In this document: positions 3,643-47,619 of the stretch, piece by piece | Layout: each line of letters opens with the position of its first letter | Position numbering within the stretch: the stretch's first letter is position 1 | Sequence record: OR539219.1 | Length of the DNA: 64,000 nt | Strand: one strand, 5' to 3' | Source of the DNA: Escherichia phage vB-Eco-KMB39 | Program-made: the position numbers and the translations under genes | Notes under the pieces: generated by a model | The model's input: the letters and a program-made list of their open reading frames with translations, nothing else | What the model was told of the DNA's origin: nothing | Databases searched by the model: none

Positions 3643-3658
3643 TATTTATATATTTATA
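3643..3658 (-). promoter_or_regulatory. two tandem TATAAATA late-promoter motifs just upstream of tRNA-Ser
   Basis: Plus-strand tatttata at 3643-3650 and 3651-3658 (TATAAATA on minus), between segB stop and tRNA-Ser 5' end; very close to the tRNA 5' end, so function uncertain. Confidence 0.3.
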
Positions 3659-4262
3659 TATTGTTAATTTGATTTAGAATTCTTTTTGCTTGAGTATGAC
3701 TTACGCCAATATGCTTAGCATATTTAGATAATTCGCCGCGTTTAGAAAAATCATATAATTTAGAAATTTCTATTCTTCTTTTTCTTTCATCCGCAGAAAC
3801 TTTTGCTTCGTTTGCTTTTGCTATTTTACGTTTAGCTTCTTGAGAATGAGTTTTACCAGCAAAGCCATTCTTCATTAATCCATTTGAAGACCATCCTTTT
3901 AATTTTCCGTTAGAATGTGCCTTTTTAACACCCAATGAAATTAATTCGCGTTGCTGATCTGTCATAGGATAATTATTTATATGATCCCATCCACCTTCAC
4001 CTCCAAGTTTTAAATTATACACATCTGGTCTATTTAAAAACTCTTCTGTGACAATATTTTTCTCGGCTTCAAGCATAGATTCTTTATCATCAAAATACTC
4101 TAATATTTCTTTAGAAAAATTTTCTATACCATATTTATCTTGGGCTCTTTTTAATAATTTACCAGAACCCATATATCCATCATCTAAATTTTCGGTAGAA
4201 TGCACACCAATATAAATTTTATTATTAATTTTATTTGTTATTTTATAAAGATAAAAATGCAT
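3654..4262 (-). CDS. segB: GIY-YIG homing endonuclease embedded in the tRNA cluster
   Basis: GIY-YIG motifs FYLYKITNKINNKIYIG and YMGSG; start moved from 4304 to ATG 4262 to avoid overlapping tRNA-Gly; segB-like position by memory of T4. Confidence 0.75.
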   Translation of the reverse strand: MHFYLYKITNKINNKIYIGVHSTENLDDGYMGSGKLLKRAQDKYGIENFSKEILEYFDDKESMLEAEKNIVTEEFLNRPDVYNLKLGGEGGWDHINNYPMTDQQRELISLGVKKAHSNGKLKGWSSNGLMKNGFAGKTHSQEAKRKIAKANEAKVSADERKRRIEISKLYDFSKRGELSKYAKHIGVSHTQAKRILNQINNI

Positions 4263-4308
4263 ATCAGTCCCTAATAAAGAACTGAGCGTCTCACGACGAG
4301 TCATAAAT

Positions 4309-26136: not shown

Positions 26137-27839
<1,703 letters not shown>

Positions 27840-27881: not shown

Positions 27882-31022
<3,141 letters not shown>

Positions 31023-31050: not shown

Positions 31051-33030
31051 ATGACTTTATTATCTCCGGGCATTGAGCTCAAAGAAACTACGGTTCAAAG
31101 CACCGTTGTTAATAACTCTACTGGTACAGCAGCTTTGGCCGGTAAATTCCAGTGGGGTCCTGCTTTTCAGATTAAACAGGTTACAAATGAAGTAGATTTA
31201 GTTAATACTTTTGGTCAACCTACAGCTGAAACTGCTGATTATTTTATGTCTGCAATGAATTTCTTACAATATGGAAATGATTTGCGAGTTGTGCGTGCTG
31301 TCGATAGAGATACCGCTAAAAACTCATCTCCGATTGCTGGTAATATTGAATACACTATTTCAGCCCCAGGTAGTAACTACGCGGTTGGAGATAAAATCAC
31401 GGTTAAGTATGTTTCAGAAAATGTTGAAACAGAGGGTAAAATTACTGAAGTAGACGCAGATGGAAAAATTAAGAAAATTAATATTCCTACTGCAAAAATT
31501 ATTGCTAAAGCGAAAGAAGTCGGTGAATATCCAGCATTAGGTTCTAACTGGACTGCAGAAATTTCTTCATCTTCTTCCGGTTTAGCTGCAGTAATAACTC
31601 TTGGAAAAATTATTACTGATTCCGGTATTTTATTAGCTGAAATCGAGAGCGCTGAAACTGCTATGACAGCAGTTGATTTTCAGGCAAATCTTGAAAAATA
31701 TGGAATTCCAGGAGTAGTAGCTCTCTATCCAGGCGAATTAGGCGATAAAATTGAAATTGAAATCGTATCTAAAGCTGACTACGCAAAAGGTGCTTCTGCA
31801 TTACTCCCAATTTATCCAGGTGGTGGAACACGCGCATCTACTGCCAAGGCAGTGTTTGGATATGGACCACAAACTGATTCACAATACGCTATTATAGTTC
31901 GTCGTAATGATGCTATTGTTCAAAGCGTTGTTCTTTCAACAAAGCGTGGTGAAAAAGATATTTACGATAGTAACATCTATATTGATGACTTTTTCGCAAA
32001 AGGTGGTTCAGAATATATTTTTGCAACTGCACAAAACTGGCCAGAAGGCTTCTCTGGAATTTTAACTCTGTCTGGTGGATTATCATCAAATGCTGAAGTA
32101 ACAGCAGGAGATTTGATGGAAGCCTGGGACTTCTTTGCTGACCGTGAATCTGTTGACGTTCAACTGTTTATTGCGGGTTCTTGTGCTGGTGAATCTTTAG
32201 AAACAGCATCTACTGTCCAAAAACACGTCGTTTCAATTGGTGATGCTCGCCAGGATTGCTTAGTATTGTGCTCACCACCGCGTGAAACTGTAGTTGGAAT
32301 TCCTGTAACCCGTGCTGTTGATAACTTAGTCAATTGGAGAACTGCAGCAGGTTCATACACTGATAATAACTTTAATATCAGTTCAACCTACGCAGCAATT
32401 GATGGCAACTACAAATATCAGTATGACAAATATAATGATGTGAATCGTTGGGTCCCATTAGCAGCTGATATTGCTGGATTGTGTGCAAGAACTGATAACG
32501 TATCTCAGACTTGGATGTCTCCAGCTGGTTATAATCGTGGCCAGATTCTTAACGTTATTAAACTTGCTATTGAAACTCGCCAGGCTCAGCGCGACCGTTT
32601 ATACCAAGAAGCTATCAACCCGGTAACTGGTACAGGTGGTGATGGTTACGTATTGTATGGTGATAAAACAGCTACTTCTGTTCCTTCTCCATTTGATCGT
32701 ATTAACGTTCGTCGTCTGTTTAATATGTTGAAAACGAATATCGGACGTAGTTCAAAATATCGTTTGTTCGAATTAAACAATGCGTTTACTCGTTCATCAT
32801 TCCGCACAGAAACTGCCCAGTACTTACAGGGAATTAAAGCTCTCGGTGGAATTTATGAATATCGTGTAGTTTGCGATACAACAAATAACACTCCGTCAGT
32901 AATTGATAGAAATGAGTTTGTTGCAACATTCTACATCCAACCGGCTCGTAGTATAAATTATATCCAACTTAATTTCGTCGCAACTGCTACTGGTGCAGAT
33001 TTCGATGAGTTAACTGGTCTTGCAGGTTAA
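31051..33030 (+). CDS. 18: tail sheath protein gp18
   Basis: 659 aa; recognised tail sheath sequence. Confidence 0.9.
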   Translation: MTLLSPGIELKETTVQSTVVNNSTGTAALAGKFQWGPAFQIKQVTNEVDLVNTFGQPTAETADYFMSAMNFLQYGNDLRVVRAVDRDTAKNSSPIAGNIEYTISAPGSNYAVGDKITVKYVSENVETEGKITEVDADGKIKKINIPTAKIIAKAKEVGEYPALGSNWTAEISSSSSGLAAVITLGKIITDSGILLAEIESAETAMTAVDFQANLEKYGIPGVVALYPGELGDKIEIEIVSKADYAKGASALLPIYPGGGTRASTAKAVFGYGPQTDSQYAIIVRRNDAIVQSVVLSTKRGEKDIYDSNIYIDDFFAKGGSEYIFATAQNWPEGFSGILTLSGGLSSNAEVTAGDLMEAWDFFADRESVDVQLFIAGSCAGESLETASTVQKHVVSIGDARQDCLVLCSPPRETVVGIPVTRAVDNLVNWRTAAGSYTDNNFNISSTYAAIDGNYKYQYDKYNDVNRWVPLAADIAGLCARTDNVSQTWMSPAGYNRGQILNVIKLAIETRQAQRDRLYQEAINPVTGTGGDGYVLYGDKTATSVPSPFDRINVRRLFNMLKTNIGRSSKYRLFELNNAFTRSSFRTETAQYLQGIKALGGIYEYRVVCDTTNNTPSVIDRNEFVATFYIQPARSINYIQLNFVATATGADFDELTGLAG

Positions 33031-33038
33031 TTGATTGT

Positions 33039-33052
33039 GGGGCTTCGGCCCC
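33039..33052 (+). terminator. GC-rich UUCG-type hairpin after gene 18
   Basis: GGGGC-TTCG-GCCCC; weak T-run. Confidence 0.35.
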
Positions 33053-33069
33053 TATTCTCGAGGAAACAA

Positions 33070-33675
33070 GTGATTATTTCTAAGTTTGTTACAATAAAAC
33101 CAAGAAATCATTCAAAAATGTGGTCGGCAATTCTAGGATATGAAGTATCATATCATGATACAGTATCTGTTCCAATAGAATTAATGCCAAAGAATAGTAA
33201 TAAAATAGTTGACGCTAAATGTGATTTGTGCGGTATTAAATTTAGTAGAAGCATTCAGCTTTTAAATAGAACACCCACACATGCGTGTAGAAAATGCAGT
33301 ATTAAACAAGTTGCTATTAAAAATTCGGAAGTTCAATCCGGAATAAGCAGACCATGGCAAAGAGGCGATAAACATCCTCGATGGACTGGTAAAAGAAAAG
33401 AGTTTGCATTATATGCTAGTAGAGTTCATTCTATAACTAAGTCAGCTAAAATAAGAAAAATTTGGTCAAAATGGCCGAATGCTGATAAAATAGGAGTGTG
33501 CGGTGTAGAAGGTGCTTATCAACTCGATCATAAAGTATCTATCAAATATGGATTTGATAATTTAATTCCGCCGGAAATTATAGCAAGCGTAAAAAATTTA
33601 GAAATAATCACTTGGGAATCTAACCGAGAAAAGTCAAAAAGAAATAGCGTAGATCTTTGGGATTTACTAGAATGA
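33070..33675 (+). CDS. HNH homing endonuclease with zinc-finger, inserted between genes 18 and 19
   Basis: Cys pairs CDLCG...CRKC and HNH-like AYQLDHKVSIKYGF...NLEIITWESNREK; GTG start at 33070 after GAGGAAA chosen instead of track TTG 33031. Confidence 0.65.
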   Translation: MIISKFVTIKPRNHSKMWSAILGYEVSYHDTVSVPIELMPKNSNKIVDAKCDLCGIKFSRSIQLLNRTPTHACRKCSIKQVAIKNSEVQSGISRPWQRGDKHPRWTGKRKEFALYASRVHSITKSAKIRKIWSKWPNADKIGVCGVEGAYQLDHKVSIKYGFDNLIPPEIIASVKNLEIITWESNREKSKRNSVDLWDLLE

Positions 33676-33682
33676 TTCTAAA

Positions 33683-33700
33683 GGCCTGTTTCGGCAGGCC
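33683..33700 (+). terminator. hairpin after the HNH gene
   Basis: GGCCTG-TTTCGG-CAGGCC inverted repeat. Confidence 0.35.
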
Positions 33701-33701
33701 A

Positions 33702-33709
33702 TATAAATA
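33702..33709 (+). promoter_or_regulatory. late promoter TATAAATA (distal copy) upstream of gene 19
   Basis: Exact TATAAATA. Confidence 0.5.
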
Positions 33710-33760
33710 CACTATATCCTTAATTCTTTAATTCTATATGCCCTAGGTTAAACATAGGGA

Positions 33761-33768
33761 TATAAATA
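33761..33768 (+). promoter_or_regulatory. late promoter TATAAATA (proximal copy) for gene 19
   Basis: Exact TATAAATA 15 nt upstream of the gene 19 ATG. Confidence 0.55.
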
Positions 33769-33782
33769 CTACAGAGGCTAAT

Positions 33783-34274
33783 ATGTTTGTAGATGATGTA
33801 ACACGAGCGTTTGAATCTGGTGATTTTGCTCGACCTAACTTATTCCAAGTAGAAATTTCTTATCTTGGACAAAATTTTACGTTCCAATGTAAAGCCACTG
33901 CTTTACCAGCTGGTATTGTAGAAAAAATTCCAGTCGGATTTATGAACCGTAAAATTAACGTGGCAGGCGATCGTACATTCGATGACTGGACTGTTACAGT
34001 AATGAACGATGAAGCTCATGATGCTCGCCAGAAGTTTGTTGATTGGCAAAGCATTGCTGCTGGTCAAGGAAACGAAATTACTGGTGGAAAACCTGCAGAG
34101 TATAAAAAGAGCGCTATTGTTCGTCAATATGCTCGTGATGCTAAAACAGTAACAAAAGAAATTGAAATTAAAGGTCTGTGGCCTACTAACGTGGGTGAAC
34201 TTCAATTAGATTGGGATTCAAACAATGAAATCCAAACCTTTGAAGTAACTCTTGCTCTCGATTATTGGGAATAA
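33783..34274 (+). CDS. 19: tail tube protein gp19
   Basis: 163 aa; recognised. Confidence 0.9.
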   Translation: MFVDDVTRAFESGDFARPNLFQVEISYLGQNFTFQCKATALPAGIVEKIPVGFMNRKINVAGDRTFDDWTVTVMNDEAHDARQKFVDWQSIAAGQGNEITGGKPAEYKKSAIVRQYARDAKTVTKEIEIKGLWPTNVGELQLDWDSNNEIQTFEVTLALDYWE

Positions 34275-44801: not shown

Positions 44802-45419
44802 ATGTACCACTTTGTATATGAAACAACAAATCTAATAAACGGTAAAAAGTATATAGGAAAACACTCTACTGATGACTTGAATGATGGTTACCTTGGTTCC
44901 GGTAAGGCAATTCAGCAGGCTATAAAGAAATATGGTGAAAACAATTTCTCTAGAACAATACTAAAAGAGTTTAAAACTTCCGAAGAAGCGTACATGTATG
45001 AAGAAGAAATTATAACTCCTGAAATAATAAAAAGCAAAAATTATTATAATATGAAACCTGGTGGAATTGGTGGAATTGTTATGACTACAGAGGTTATAGC
45101 AAAGATGAAAGAATCTTCCGCTAAGAGATTTGAAAACTCACCGGGCACGGTATTAGGTACAACTTGTTACACCAATGGAACTAAAAATATTTTTATTAAA
45201 CCTGGAGAACTTGTTCCAGAAGGATTTGTAAAAGGGATGGTTCATCCTAATAGAAAGTCCAGAAAAGGATGTAAAGTCAAACCGACTACCACAGGAACTT
45301 TTTGGGTCAATAATGGCGCAATAAATAAATTAATACAACCAGACGGTATTATTCCCGACGGATTTATTAAAGGTCGTCTCATGAAAAGAGATTCTAAAGG
45401 CAAATTTAGTAAGGCATAA
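44802..45419 (+). CDS. segE: GIY-YIG homing endonuclease
   Basis: GIY-YIG motifs FVYETTNLINGKKYIGKH and YLGSG; position before uvsW as in T4 (memory). Confidence 0.75.
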   Translation: MYHFVYETTNLINGKKYIGKHSTDDLNDGYLGSGKAIQQAIKKYGENNFSRTILKEFKTSEEAYMYEEEIITPEIIKSKNYYNMKPGGIGGIVMTTEVIAKMKESSAKRFENSPGTVLGTTCYTNGTKNIFIKPGELVPEGFVKGMVHPNRKSRKGCKVKPTTTGTFWVNNGAINKLIQPDGIIPDGFIKGRLMKRDSKGKFSKA

Positions 45420-45421
45420 TT

Positions 45422-46930
45422 ATGGATATTAAAGTACATTTTCACGACTTCAGTCATGTACGCATCGATTGTGAAGAGAGCACGTTCCACGAATTAAGAG
45501 ATTTCTTTTCGTTTGAGGCAGATGGATATAGGTTTAATCCTCGCTTCAGATATGGCAACTGGGATGGACGAATCCGTCTTTTAGATTATAATCGTCTTCT
45601 TCCGTTCGGCTTAGTCGGGCAAATTAAAAAGTTCTGCGATAACTTTGGCTATAAAGCCTGGATTGACCCTCAAATTAATGAAAAAGAAGAATTATCAAGA
45701 AAAGATTTTGATGAATGGCTTTCTAAATTAGAAATCTATTCAGGAAATAAAAGAATTGAACCACACTGGTATCAAAAAGATGCAGTGTTCGAAGGATTAG
45801 TTAATCGTCGCAGAATTCTTAATCTTCCAACATCCGCAGGTAAATCTTTAATTCAAGCTTTGCTTGCACGTTATTATTTGGAAAATTATGAAGGTAAAAT
45901 TCTTATCATTGTTCCAACAACTGCTCTGACAACTCAGATGGCTGATGACTTTGTTGACTATCGTTTATTCAGTCATGCAATGATAAAGAAAATCGGCGGC
46001 GGAGCATCAAAAGATGATAAATATAAAAATGATGCACCAGTCGTCGTTGGTACATGGCAAACTGTAGTTAAACAACCGAAAGAATGGTTCTCACAGTTTG
46101 GAATGATGATGAATGATGAATGTCATCTTGCTACAGGAAAAAGTATTTCATCTATCATATCAGGATTAAATAACTGTATGTTTAAATTTGGTCTATCAGG
46201 TTCATTACGTGATGGCAAAGCCAATATCATGCAGTATGTTGGAATGTTTGGTGAAATATTTAAACCAGTAACGACTTCTAAATTAATGGAAGATGGACAA
46301 GTAACTGAGCTAAAAATTAATAGTATTTTTCTTCGCTATCCCGATGAGTTCACTACTAAATTAAAGGGAAAAACTTACCAAGAAGAAATAAAAATTATTA
46401 CTGGACTCAGTAAAAGAAATAAATGGATTGCTAAATTAGCTATTAAACTTGCACAAAAAGATGAAAACGCTTTTGTCATGTTTAAGCATGTATCACATGG
46501 TAAAGCTATTTTCGATTTAATTAAAAATGAATACGATAAAGTTTATTACGTATCAGGGGAAGTTGATACCGAAACACGCAACGTAATGAAAACCCTAGCT
46601 GAAAACGGTAAAGGAATAATTATAGTAGCTAGTTATGGTGTATTTTCTACTGGTATTTCAGTTAAAAATCTGCATCACGTTGTTTTAGCGCACGGTGTTA
46701 AATCAAAAATCATTGTATTACAAACAATCGGTCGTGTATTACGTAAGCATGGTTCTAAGACAATAGCAACAGTCTGGGATCTTATAGATGACGCGGGCGT
46801 AGTTTCTAAATCAAAAACATCTTCTAAAAAATACTCGCATTTAAACTATCTTTTAAAACATGGACTTGATCGTATTCAGCGTTATGCTGATGAAAAGTTT
46901 AATTATGTGATGAAAGAGGTTAAACTTTGA
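45422..46930 (+). CDS. uvsW: UvsW helicase (SF2, DECH box)
   Basis: 502 aa; Walker A PTSAGKS, DECH at MMMNDECHL. Confidence 0.9.
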   Translation: MDIKVHFHDFSHVRIDCEESTFHELRDFFSFEADGYRFNPRFRYGNWDGRIRLLDYNRLLPFGLVGQIKKFCDNFGYKAWIDPQINEKEELSRKDFDEWLSKLEIYSGNKRIEPHWYQKDAVFEGLVNRRRILNLPTSAGKSLIQALLARYYLENYEGKILIIVPTTALTTQMADDFVDYRLFSHAMIKKIGGGASKDDKYKNDAPVVVGTWQTVVKQPKEWFSQFGMMMNDECHLATGKSISSIISGLNNCMFKFGLSGSLRDGKANIMQYVGMFGEIFKPVTTSKLMEDGQVTELKINSIFLRYPDEFTTKLKGKTYQEEIKIITGLSKRNKWIAKLAIKLAQKDENAFVMFKHVSHGKAIFDLIKNEYDKVYYVSGEVDTETRNVMKTLAENGKGIIIVASYGVFSTGISVKNLHHVVLAHGVKSKIIVLQTIGRVLRKHGSKTIATVWDLIDDAGVVSKSKTSSKKYSHLNYLLKHGLDRIQRYADEKFNYVMKEVKL

Positions 46931-47619
46931 ATTATAAATTAATATATGATAATTTAATTAATAGAGCCCAGAATCGGGCTCGCCTTAATGGATACACTGA
47001 AACACATCATATAATTCCTAGATGTATGGGTGGTACAAATGATAAGTGTAATTTAGTAGAACTAACGGCTGAAGAACATTTTATAGCCCATAAACTTTTA
47101 GCTAAAATTCATCCAAACCATTACGGTATAATTAAAGCTGTTATATGTATGGGGATGAATTCAAATACTCATGAAAGACACGTCAATAAATCTTACGCAT
47201 GGGAACGTCGTAAAATGGCAGAACTTCAATCCGGCGAAGGTAATCCATTTTACGGAAAACACCATACGGAAGAACATAAACAATATATGTCAAAACTCAT
47301 GAAAAGTCGTCCAATTACATGGGGAAATAAAATTAGTAAAACTAAAAGAATGAACCCAACGAAATGGACTGAAGAAGCTAAAAGATTACATTCAATCAAT
47401 CAATCGGGTAAAAATAACGGCATGTATGGAAGGAAACATTCCGCTAAATCTATTCAGAAAATTAAAGATAACATGCCAGATAATTCAGGAGCTAATAACC
47501 CAGCTGCTAAACCTATAGAAGTAAATGGTGTTAAGTATAAATGTATGAAAGATGCTTCTAAAGCTACTGGATTATCAATGTACAAACTAAGAATACTTAG
47601 AAAAACAGTTAATTTATAA
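46927..47619 (+). CDS. HNH homing endonuclease with NUMOD-like repeats, inserted between uvsW and uvsW.1
   Basis: Motif HHIIPRCMGGTNDKCNLVELTAEEHFIAH; apparent TTG start overlapping the uvsW stop (TTGA); paralogue of 8508..9167. Confidence 0.7.
   Translation: MNYKLIYDNLINRAQNRARLNGYTETHHIIPRCMGGTNDKCNLVELTAEEHFIAHKLLAKIHPNHYGIIKAVICMGMNSNTHERHVNKSYAWERRKMAELQSGEGNPFYGKHHTEEHKQYMSKLMKSRPITWGNKISKTKRMNPTKWTEEAKRLHSINQSGKNNGMYGRKHSAKSIQKIKDNMPDNSGANNPAAKPIEVNGVKYKCMKDASKATGLSMYKLRILRKTVNL

Follow-up and report, generated by a model that had tools for sequence, protein, structure and literature searches.

A 64,000-nucleotide (nt) stretch of DNA from Escherichia phage vB-Eco-KMB39 (sequence record OR539219.1), here called the window, represents the late region of a T-even, T6-like phage (Tequatrovirus) and carries, between the tail sheath gene 18 and the tail tube gene 19, an open reading frame (ORF) of 201 amino acids (aa) that is the homologue of the T6 gene ORF19.1. 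ORF19.1 probably encodes a homing endonuclease of a divergent HNH family that is without annotation; the gene is free-standing and is carried on a compact cassette that consists of a UUCG hairpin, a Shine-Dalgarno sequence and the GTG-started ORF and is located exactly after the gene 18 stop codon. The ORF of roughly 200 aa at this site, and its GTG start directly after the gene 18 hairpin, had been pointed out in a preliminary description of the sequence and were both confirmed by our analysis. That the product is an HNH-type endonuclease with a zinc module, also proposed there, is judged very probable from its predicted fold and motif.

Alignment of the window with T4 and T6 showed that the cassette is a clean replacement, with 644 nt (33031-33674) where T4 has the 8 nt TACGGTGC, so the ORF is indeed an insertion relative to T4. 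(Features of the cassette, its flanks and the gene 18 3' end are given on the + strand.) Gene 18 occupies 31051-33030, with its TAA stop at 33028-33030. The 5' end of the cassette contains a C(UUCG)G tetraloop hairpin, GGGGCUUCGGCCCC (GGGGC-UUCG-GCCCC, 33039-33052), which was recognized from the sequence and the predicted fold, followed by the Shine-Dalgarno sequence GAGGA (33060-33064), 5 nt ahead of the GTG. The ORF itself extends from the GTG at 33070 to the TGA at 33673-33675 (33070-33675). The GTG start was backed by homologues that open with ATG at the aligned M-I-I-S/T-K, as well as by a note in the T6 record. The same boundaries were found in RB5 and HY03, and ORF-less relatives in IMG/VR carried the same 8 nt as T4. 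Between the window and ORF-less T4 or IMG/VR relatives, the downstream flanks were 100% identical and gene 18 was about 95-97% identical. The filled site was present in about 117 phage records (Tequatrovirus), and a query with the empty site matched 533 records over at least 80% of its length, about 400 of them Tequatrovirus-like. The site is thus polymorphic for presence and absence of the cassette, with precise boundaries and intact neighbours, as is expected of a homing endonuclease gene.

The T6 gene, recorded as "ORF19.1" or T6ORF160, is the same gene in the same place, with identities of 97.6% at the nucleotide level and 97.5% at the amino acid level; the GTG start, the hairpin and the flanks are alike, and no structural difference was seen. 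In the region of about 27-36 kb, the window has the same coordinates as T6 throughout, while elsewhere the two differ. T6 ORF19.1 has been in the sequence databases since 1994, but the T6 records label it "ORF19.1", "hypothetical protein" or, wrongly, "putative head morphogenesis protein", and a function is absent from them. A 2010 census counted one "other HNH" gene in T6 without specifying its identity. Homologues were detected with tblastn in 242 phage records, 69 of them at 95% identity or more. Nearly all of the homologue records listed call it "hypothetical"; one says HNH endonuclease, and the records of the Klebsiella phages Roth04, Roth17 and Roth19 call it "type II restriction endonuclease". 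The ORF also matched PHROG 5104 (E 9e-83), a group of unknown function. The ratio of nonsynonymous to synonymous substitution rates (dN/dS) was 0.08 between the window ORF and T6, and 0.14 for the C-terminal 78 codons compared with the RB5 allele, which argues that the protein has been kept functional by purifying selection.

The site directly after gene 18 was found to be occupied in at least five T4-like lineages. Homologues with 30-45% identity lie there in Jiaodavirus PKO111, Acinetobacter phage AbTZA1, Shewanella phage Thanatos-2, Aeromonas phage AS-zj and VR26 (L013), and in the Sinorhizobium phage phiM12 the homologue also lies right after gene 18, with a next gene that is not gene 19. 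Among 80 IMG/VR loci with family members, 29 adjoin gene 18; the more remote relatives, which have only the C-terminal domain in common, are located elsewhere. Since the adjacency to gene 18 is kept where gene 19 is not the neighbour, the constant partner of the family is the 3' end of gene 18. The C-terminus of gp18 (...PARSINYITLNFVAT...GADFDEL) is among the most conserved peptides of that protein.

Comparison of the alleles showed that their relationships are at odds with those of the phages that carry them, as is expected under horizontal spread; this was judged from pairwise identities. RB5 and HY03 contain a second allele, which has the same 14-nt hairpin, Shine-Dalgarno sequence and GTG as the window and is about 90% identical over the last 230 nt, but whose first 130 or so codons are unalignable with the window at the DNA level. 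The N-terminal domain of the RB5 type is 55-57% identical to alleles of Klebsiella and Shewanella phages and 37% identical to the T6 type, although the last 400 aa of gp18 are about 100% identical between RB5 and the window. The RB5-type allele is a natural domain swap and could inform on how specificity is encoded. The near-identical genomes L029 (IMG/VR 2974497520) and L031 (vB_EcoM_005) contain different family members at different sub-sites, namely a 206-aa copy directly after gene 18 in L029 and a 227-aa copy directly before gene 19 in L031, with a shared spacer of about 130 nt on the opposite side of each copy. In Thanatos-2 (L024), the 38-nt spacer ahead of the homologue contains the hairpin GGGGCTTCGGCCCC, identical to positions 33039-33052 of the window, while the C-terminal half of gp18 is only 67% identical; the hairpin therefore appears to travel with the ORF or to be selected with it.

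Direct repeats that flank the ORF were observed in the Klebsiella phage PKO111 (L021; AGAT(C)GATAAATTATATTAC, z 7.4) and in L029 (ATAAATTATATC.C.CTTAAT, z 5.9), the first copy falling within the S-I-N-Y-I codons of gene 18 and the second behind the stop codon of the ORF, and these could be the footprint of the first entry of the cassette. The corresponding repeat in the window (TATAAAT..TATATCC..CTTAATT, between gene 18 and 33702-33730) was weak and not significant (z 1.8). The spacer before the ORF in L029 also contains a good promoter of the T4 early type (GTTTAC...TGGTATAAT) followed by a GC-rich stem-loop, an arrangement that resembles the "promoter-early stem-loop" cassettes of T4-type phages (PMC2839356).

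Upstream of the insertion, the 3' end of gene 18 contains a recoded patch. The window differs from T4 at 5% of the positions in genes 17 and 18, but the 33 nt at 32947-32979 (positions -84 to -52, counted from where the gene 18 stop codon ends) contain 14 differences, which is the densest cluster in the 3.8 kb of the two genes, the next densest segment having 7. There were no differences in the 110 nt before the patch and one after it. Ten consecutive codons (R-S-I-N-Y-I-T/Q-L-N-F-V, with Q in the window) are affected with a single amino acid change, the rest of the changes being synonymous. Patches at similar places were seen in two other comparisons of near-isogenic genomes, from -97 to -49 between VR26, which carries the ORF, and the ORF-less L012 and L014, and from -100 to the gene 18 stop between L029 and L031, which carry a different family member at a different place. 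Filled and empty genomes were virtually identical over the final 50 nt of gene 18 and throughout the downstream spacer. The I-N codons were ATA AAT in 12 of 28 ORF-bearing and in 3 of 81 ORF-less gene 18 tails (Fisher p 2.7e-6), a test over 109 distinct tails in which relatedness was ignored and for which the ORF-bearing loci were partly collected by a search for the ORF. When a chimeric BLAST query was made from the T4 patch and the filled junction, the best match among the 117 filled records was 94.1%; as there was no better match, no sequenced carrier has the T4 version of the patch. These sequence patterns make the segment at 32947-32979 a candidate mark of the cassette, whether of cleavage, immunity or co-conversion.

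These observations could be joined in a mechanism of homing. The gene would be expressed by read-through of late gene 18 transcripts and be weakly translated from its GTG. In a mixed infection, the enzyme would nick or cut the ORF-less genome in or beside the conserved 3' end of gene 18, and during recombination-dependent repair of the T4 type the cut genome would receive a copy of the ORF along with a short donor stretch of gene 18. On this view, the dense synonymous patch 52-84 nt ahead of the gene 18 stop would record the co-conversion and would also explain why the carrier stays uncut. The candidate target would be the segment of T4 gene 18 that codes for P-A-R-S-I-N-Y-I-T-L-N-F, and the 33-nt patch of the window would be the predicted resistant variant.

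Several points weigh against this mechanism. With the reverse query, made from the window patch and the empty junction, the ORF-less OES_C-2 matched at 99.1%, and about one third of the sampled ORF-less Tequatrovirus sites carried a patch of the ATA-AAT type or a related one; as read from these sequences, the link between patch and ORF is one-way only. Intact homologues without ATA AAT were found in vB_EcoM_005, phiM12 and AS-zj, and simple linkage over 60-90 bp could explain the association of patch and ORF within the genus. The conserved position across subfamilies could also mean an old resident gene that was lost repeatedly. In addition, a literature search found no paper describing ORF19.1, its nuclease activity, its cleavage site or its biased inheritance.

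The same element could also home to another target, the empty junction itself, which consists of the last bases of gene 18, the stop codon and TACGGTGC/ATTCTAAAGG; the insertion would destroy this target, and the patch would only hitch-hike. The exact placement of the cassette at the stop codon, with clean ends, is in line with this explanation. So is the virtual identity of filled and empty genomes on both sides of the junction, since nothing else there could tell self from target, and the existence of ORF-less genomes with a window-type patch means that the patch is insufficient to mark carriers. However, the spacers are unconserved between genera, and yet the family keeps to its site behind gene 18 even in a phage whose next gene is not gene 19. 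Three independent comparisons put the left edge of the patch between -84 and -100, a position that suits a fixed break point there better than one at the stop codon, and ATA AAT turns up repeatedly in lineages that carry the ORF and belong to different genera. A junction target was thus considered a minority possibility, and cleavage within gene 18 was retained as the preferred site of action of the homing enzyme.

It is rather unlikely that ORF19.1 is instead an old, dispensable resident nuclease gene, serving in the attack on host or competitor DNA or in DNA processing, which was inherited vertically and lost many times, including in T4. Its same position in many subfamilies, the strong purifying selection and the size of the family (6961 clusters at E<=1e-3) would agree with such a history, as would the promoters that some homologues have of their own (TATAAATA in AbTZA1, VR26 and vB_EcoM_005, and the T4-early-like one in L029). 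Against it, the empty T4-type sites have an identical 8-nt filler and show no deletion scars, and near-identical phages have swapped alleles, which resemble those of other genera more closely. The occupation of different sub-sites by different family members in L029 and L031 is also difficult to reconcile with vertical descent, as is a 106-aa protein of Salmonella phage S16 that matches only the C-terminal nuclease part and is possibly a decayed copy.

The assignment of the product to the HNH nucleases was based on residue conservation and structure prediction. The preliminary description had given the protein CxxC...CxxC pairs and a C-terminal HNH motif; the cysteine pairs are present (C51-x2-C54, CDLC at 51-54, and C73-x2-C76, CRKC at 73-76), while the C-terminal motif is of the form D-H/N/N, Y150-Q-L-D153-H154 ... 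N176-L ... N185-R-x-K188 (YQLDH...NL...NREK), and a literal H-N-H is absent. When 35 homologues with identities as low as 34% were aligned, C51, C54 and C73 were invariant and C76 nearly so, and Y150, Q151, D153, H154, S157, G161, N176, L177, W182, N185, R186 and K188 were invariant as well. The AlphaFold model built from this alignment had a mean predicted local distance difference test (pLDDT) value of 88.6 and was soft only at residues 91-110, which are linker-like. In the model, the N-terminal domain is beta-rich, and the two cysteine pairs form the knuckle and the helix start (helix 74-89) of a treble-clef geometry. This four-cysteine zinc module (C51, C54, C73 and C76; 33220-33297) is presumed to be the part that recognizes DNA, and according to the model it is a separate N-terminal module outside the nuclease core. 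The C-terminal unit contains a strand at 150-154, a strand at 177-181 and a helix at 182-190; strand 1 ends with D153/H154, N176 precedes strand 2, and N185 is part of the helix. The predicted model thus has the beta-beta-alpha-metal fold of HNH or His-Me finger nucleases from Y150 to K188 (33517-33633), and D153/H154, N176 and N185 are predicted to provide the catalytic His preceded by an Asp, the structural Asn and the metal-binding Asn.

Comparisons with known nucleases agreed with this assignment at the level of structure more than of sequence. In a Foldseek search of predicted viral structures (BFVD), members of the family came first and were followed by annotated HNH and homing endonucleases with E values from 3.5e-5 to 3e-3, including "HNH endonuclease" (3.5e-5), "Endonuclease-like" and "Homing endonuclease" (2.8e-3), and a search of the PDB with the whole model gave no match. 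The hhalign comparison with the HNH segment of SpCas9 was weak (E 0.074), but its register was right, with D153/H154, N176 and N185 placed on D839/H840, N854 and N863. Among the curated sequence models, no Pfam entry, HNH or other, matched the window protein, the HNH models also failed to match its long relatives, NCBIfam gave no match, and HNH_4 reached only E 0.078 in 1 of the 35 members, so the family is covered by no curated model. The "HNH endonuclease" group PHROG 14913 was matched at E 3e-3 only, over the zinc-finger region. DUF4379, a treble clef, was weakly matched in 14 of the 35 members (best E 8e-4). When the PDB sequences were searched with a profile, the only matches were weak ones to zinc fingers, including the treble-clef repeats of mS66 and ribosomal zinc ribbons. 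Taken from the model, a divergent HNH core is likely in ORF19.1. The small stand-alone nucleases Gme HNH (PDB 4h9d) and phage GVE2 HNH (PDB 5h0o) and the HNH domain of Cas9 have 8-18% sequence identity to it, and they differ from it in that they are without the N-terminal treble-clef domain and have no known site link to a tail gene.

The failure of the curated HNH models, the zinc-finger and ribosomal zinc-ribbon nature of the PDB profile matches, and the location of the gene within a late structural operon would also suit a protein that is not a nuclease, namely a zinc-ribbon protein that binds DNA or RNA, perhaps to regulate late or tail genes, and whose C-terminal motif is merely HNH-like. 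This is quite improbable, since the structure comparison ranked HNH nucleases first, with annotated phage HNH and homing endonucleases matched, and the invariant residues are those of a Cas9/McrA-type active site in the right secondary-structure elements. T4 and most relatives are without the gene, and it is therefore not needed for tail gene expression.

Two observations concern the modular make-up of the family. In the distant relatives P0134 and P0155, the C-terminal nuclease domain is joined to DUF7487 and not to the treble-clef N-terminal domain. In the S16 protein (BFVD M1HDJ8), the match is confined to the C-terminal nuclease domain (61% identity), and this protein may be a decayed or truncated copy.

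A wider reading, which we hold only tentatively, is that ORF19.1 belongs to a large unannotated family of treble-clef plus HNH homing endonucleases, one branch of which would be specialized on the conserved 3' end of the tail sheath gene of myoviruses, would move with a recoded, cleavage-resistant version of the last 50-100 nt or so of gene 18 and would change its specificity by swaps of the N-terminal domain. If this were true, the hypervariable synonymous patch of gene 18 would be a readable record of an arms race between endonuclease and target.

With regard to expression, neither a promoter-like nor a terminator-like site was found in the 39-nt spacer between gene 18 and the ORF, so the ORF is probably read through from late transcripts of gene 18, which has its own TATAAATA at 31015. 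The GTG start, usual for such genes, suggests weak translation and a low output. Hiding of the ribosome-binding site by the hairpin was not seen in the predicted folds, in which the GAGGA is unsequestered, and the z-scores of the folds were unremarkable. A variant late promoter, TATAAATT (32952-32959, one base off TATAAATA), lies within the patch and was considered as a driver of the ORF. This idea was given little weight because TATAAATT was unenriched in the window (12 found against 12.9 expected) and several of the homologues with ATA AAT have promoters in their spacers.

Downstream of the ORF, the two exact TATAAATA motifs noted earlier at 33702 and 33761 are present in the sequence (33702-33709 and 33761-33768), 59 nt apart and directly 3' of the ORF, the second being 15 nt before the ATG of gene 19 at 33783. 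The T4 late promoter is an 8-bp TATAAATA box (PMC2988020), and the motif occurred 25 times in the window against 10.0 +/- 3.3 times in shuffled sequences, an over-representation that marks it as a real signal in this genome. The refuting case named in the preliminary description, T4 and relatives with the same ORF and both promoters, turned out half true, since T4 has both boxes and lacks the ORF. The 116-nt spacer of T4 corresponds base for base to 33675-33790 of the window and contains, with 100% identity, both boxes, a second UUCG hairpin (GGCCUGU-UUCG-GCAGGCC, 33683-33700) that lies outside the cassette in the resident T4-type spacer, and a long imperfect hairpin of 52 nt between the boxes (33713-33764), whose 3' arm overlaps the second box. 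The same double-TATAAATA spacer was present in RB5, HY03 and ORF-less IMG/VR relatives. Because ORF-less T4 has both boxes, the double motif is the ancestral T4-type leader of gene 19, upstream of which the cassette was inserted; the two motifs are an ordinary gene 19 leader and have no part in the mobile element. The earlier idea that the insertion had displaced or duplicated the gene 19 promoter, drawn from the two exact motifs right after the ORF, is ruled out by the identical two-motif spacer of T4 and other ORF-less relatives, and the annotation-level link between the double late promoter and the insertion is hereby corrected. The long hairpin could affect the choice between the boxes or the stability of gene 19 mRNA.

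Judged by analogy, the functionally closest systems are the free-standing endonuclease genes of T-even phages, among which MobE comes closest by enzyme class. The T-even HNH homing enzymes of this free-standing kind, MobE included (mobA-E, hef), are encoded by optional small ORFs between conserved genes (PMC2790892, PMC2988022). ORF19.1 is likewise small, optional and placed between conserved genes, and it would be expected to cut the ORF-less allele nearby and to spread with flanking markers. Unlike these enzymes, it has no detectable relation to the Pfam HNH models and has its zinc finger at the N-terminus and its nuclease at the C-terminus, and its locus is 18/19 whereas that of MobE is nrdA/nrdB.

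The T4 GIY-YIG enzymes SegF and SegG are the closest systems with respect to silent-site immunity and to cleavage within a neighbouring conserved gene, at some distance from their own insertion point; silent polymorphisms protect the alleles of carriers, and markers close by undergo co-conversion. We propose the same pattern for gene 18, with a different catalytic family and with a cleavage site that we infer from sequence patterns. Some mobile endonuclease ORFs, such as the Allomyces atp6 element, bring a replacement 3' end for the gene that they invade. L029 and PKO111 resemble this type in that their ORF is flanked by the repeat of the S-I-N-Y-I segment of gene 18, and in L029 the last 100 nt or so of gene 18 are unlike those of its near-identical relative, as would be expected had the ORF brought a new 3' end with it. 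The window is unlike this type, as its flanking repeat is weak and its last 50 nt of gene 18 are T4-like.

Homing endonucleases shape the survival of markers in T-even co-infection and are a source of sequence-specific nucleases. ORF19.1 has long been in the databases and is uncharacterised, and the finding is of moderate interest, mainly through the specific candidate target and its resistant variant.

The genes around this region are in the order gene 17 (29187-31019), gene 18, the cassette, gene 19 (33783-34274) and gene 20 (from 34346). The preliminary description had called the ORF a third HNH endonuclease; among ten candidate ORFs scanned in the window, no other HNH ORF detectable with Pfam was found. 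The T6 record MH550421 (L106, 26256-27068) contains, between genes 13 and 14, an ORF that carries a note of identity to an HNH endonuclease; the window (26137-27839) has no such ORF, and its genes 13 and 14 abut. Other endonuclease-like ORFs of the window are a GIY-YIG/NUMOD3 seg-like ORF on the - strand (3654-4304) and, on the + strand, a segE-like GIY-YIG ORF (44802-45419) and a NUMOD3-containing ORF (46927-47619), which overlaps the end of a uvsW-like ORF (45422-46930).

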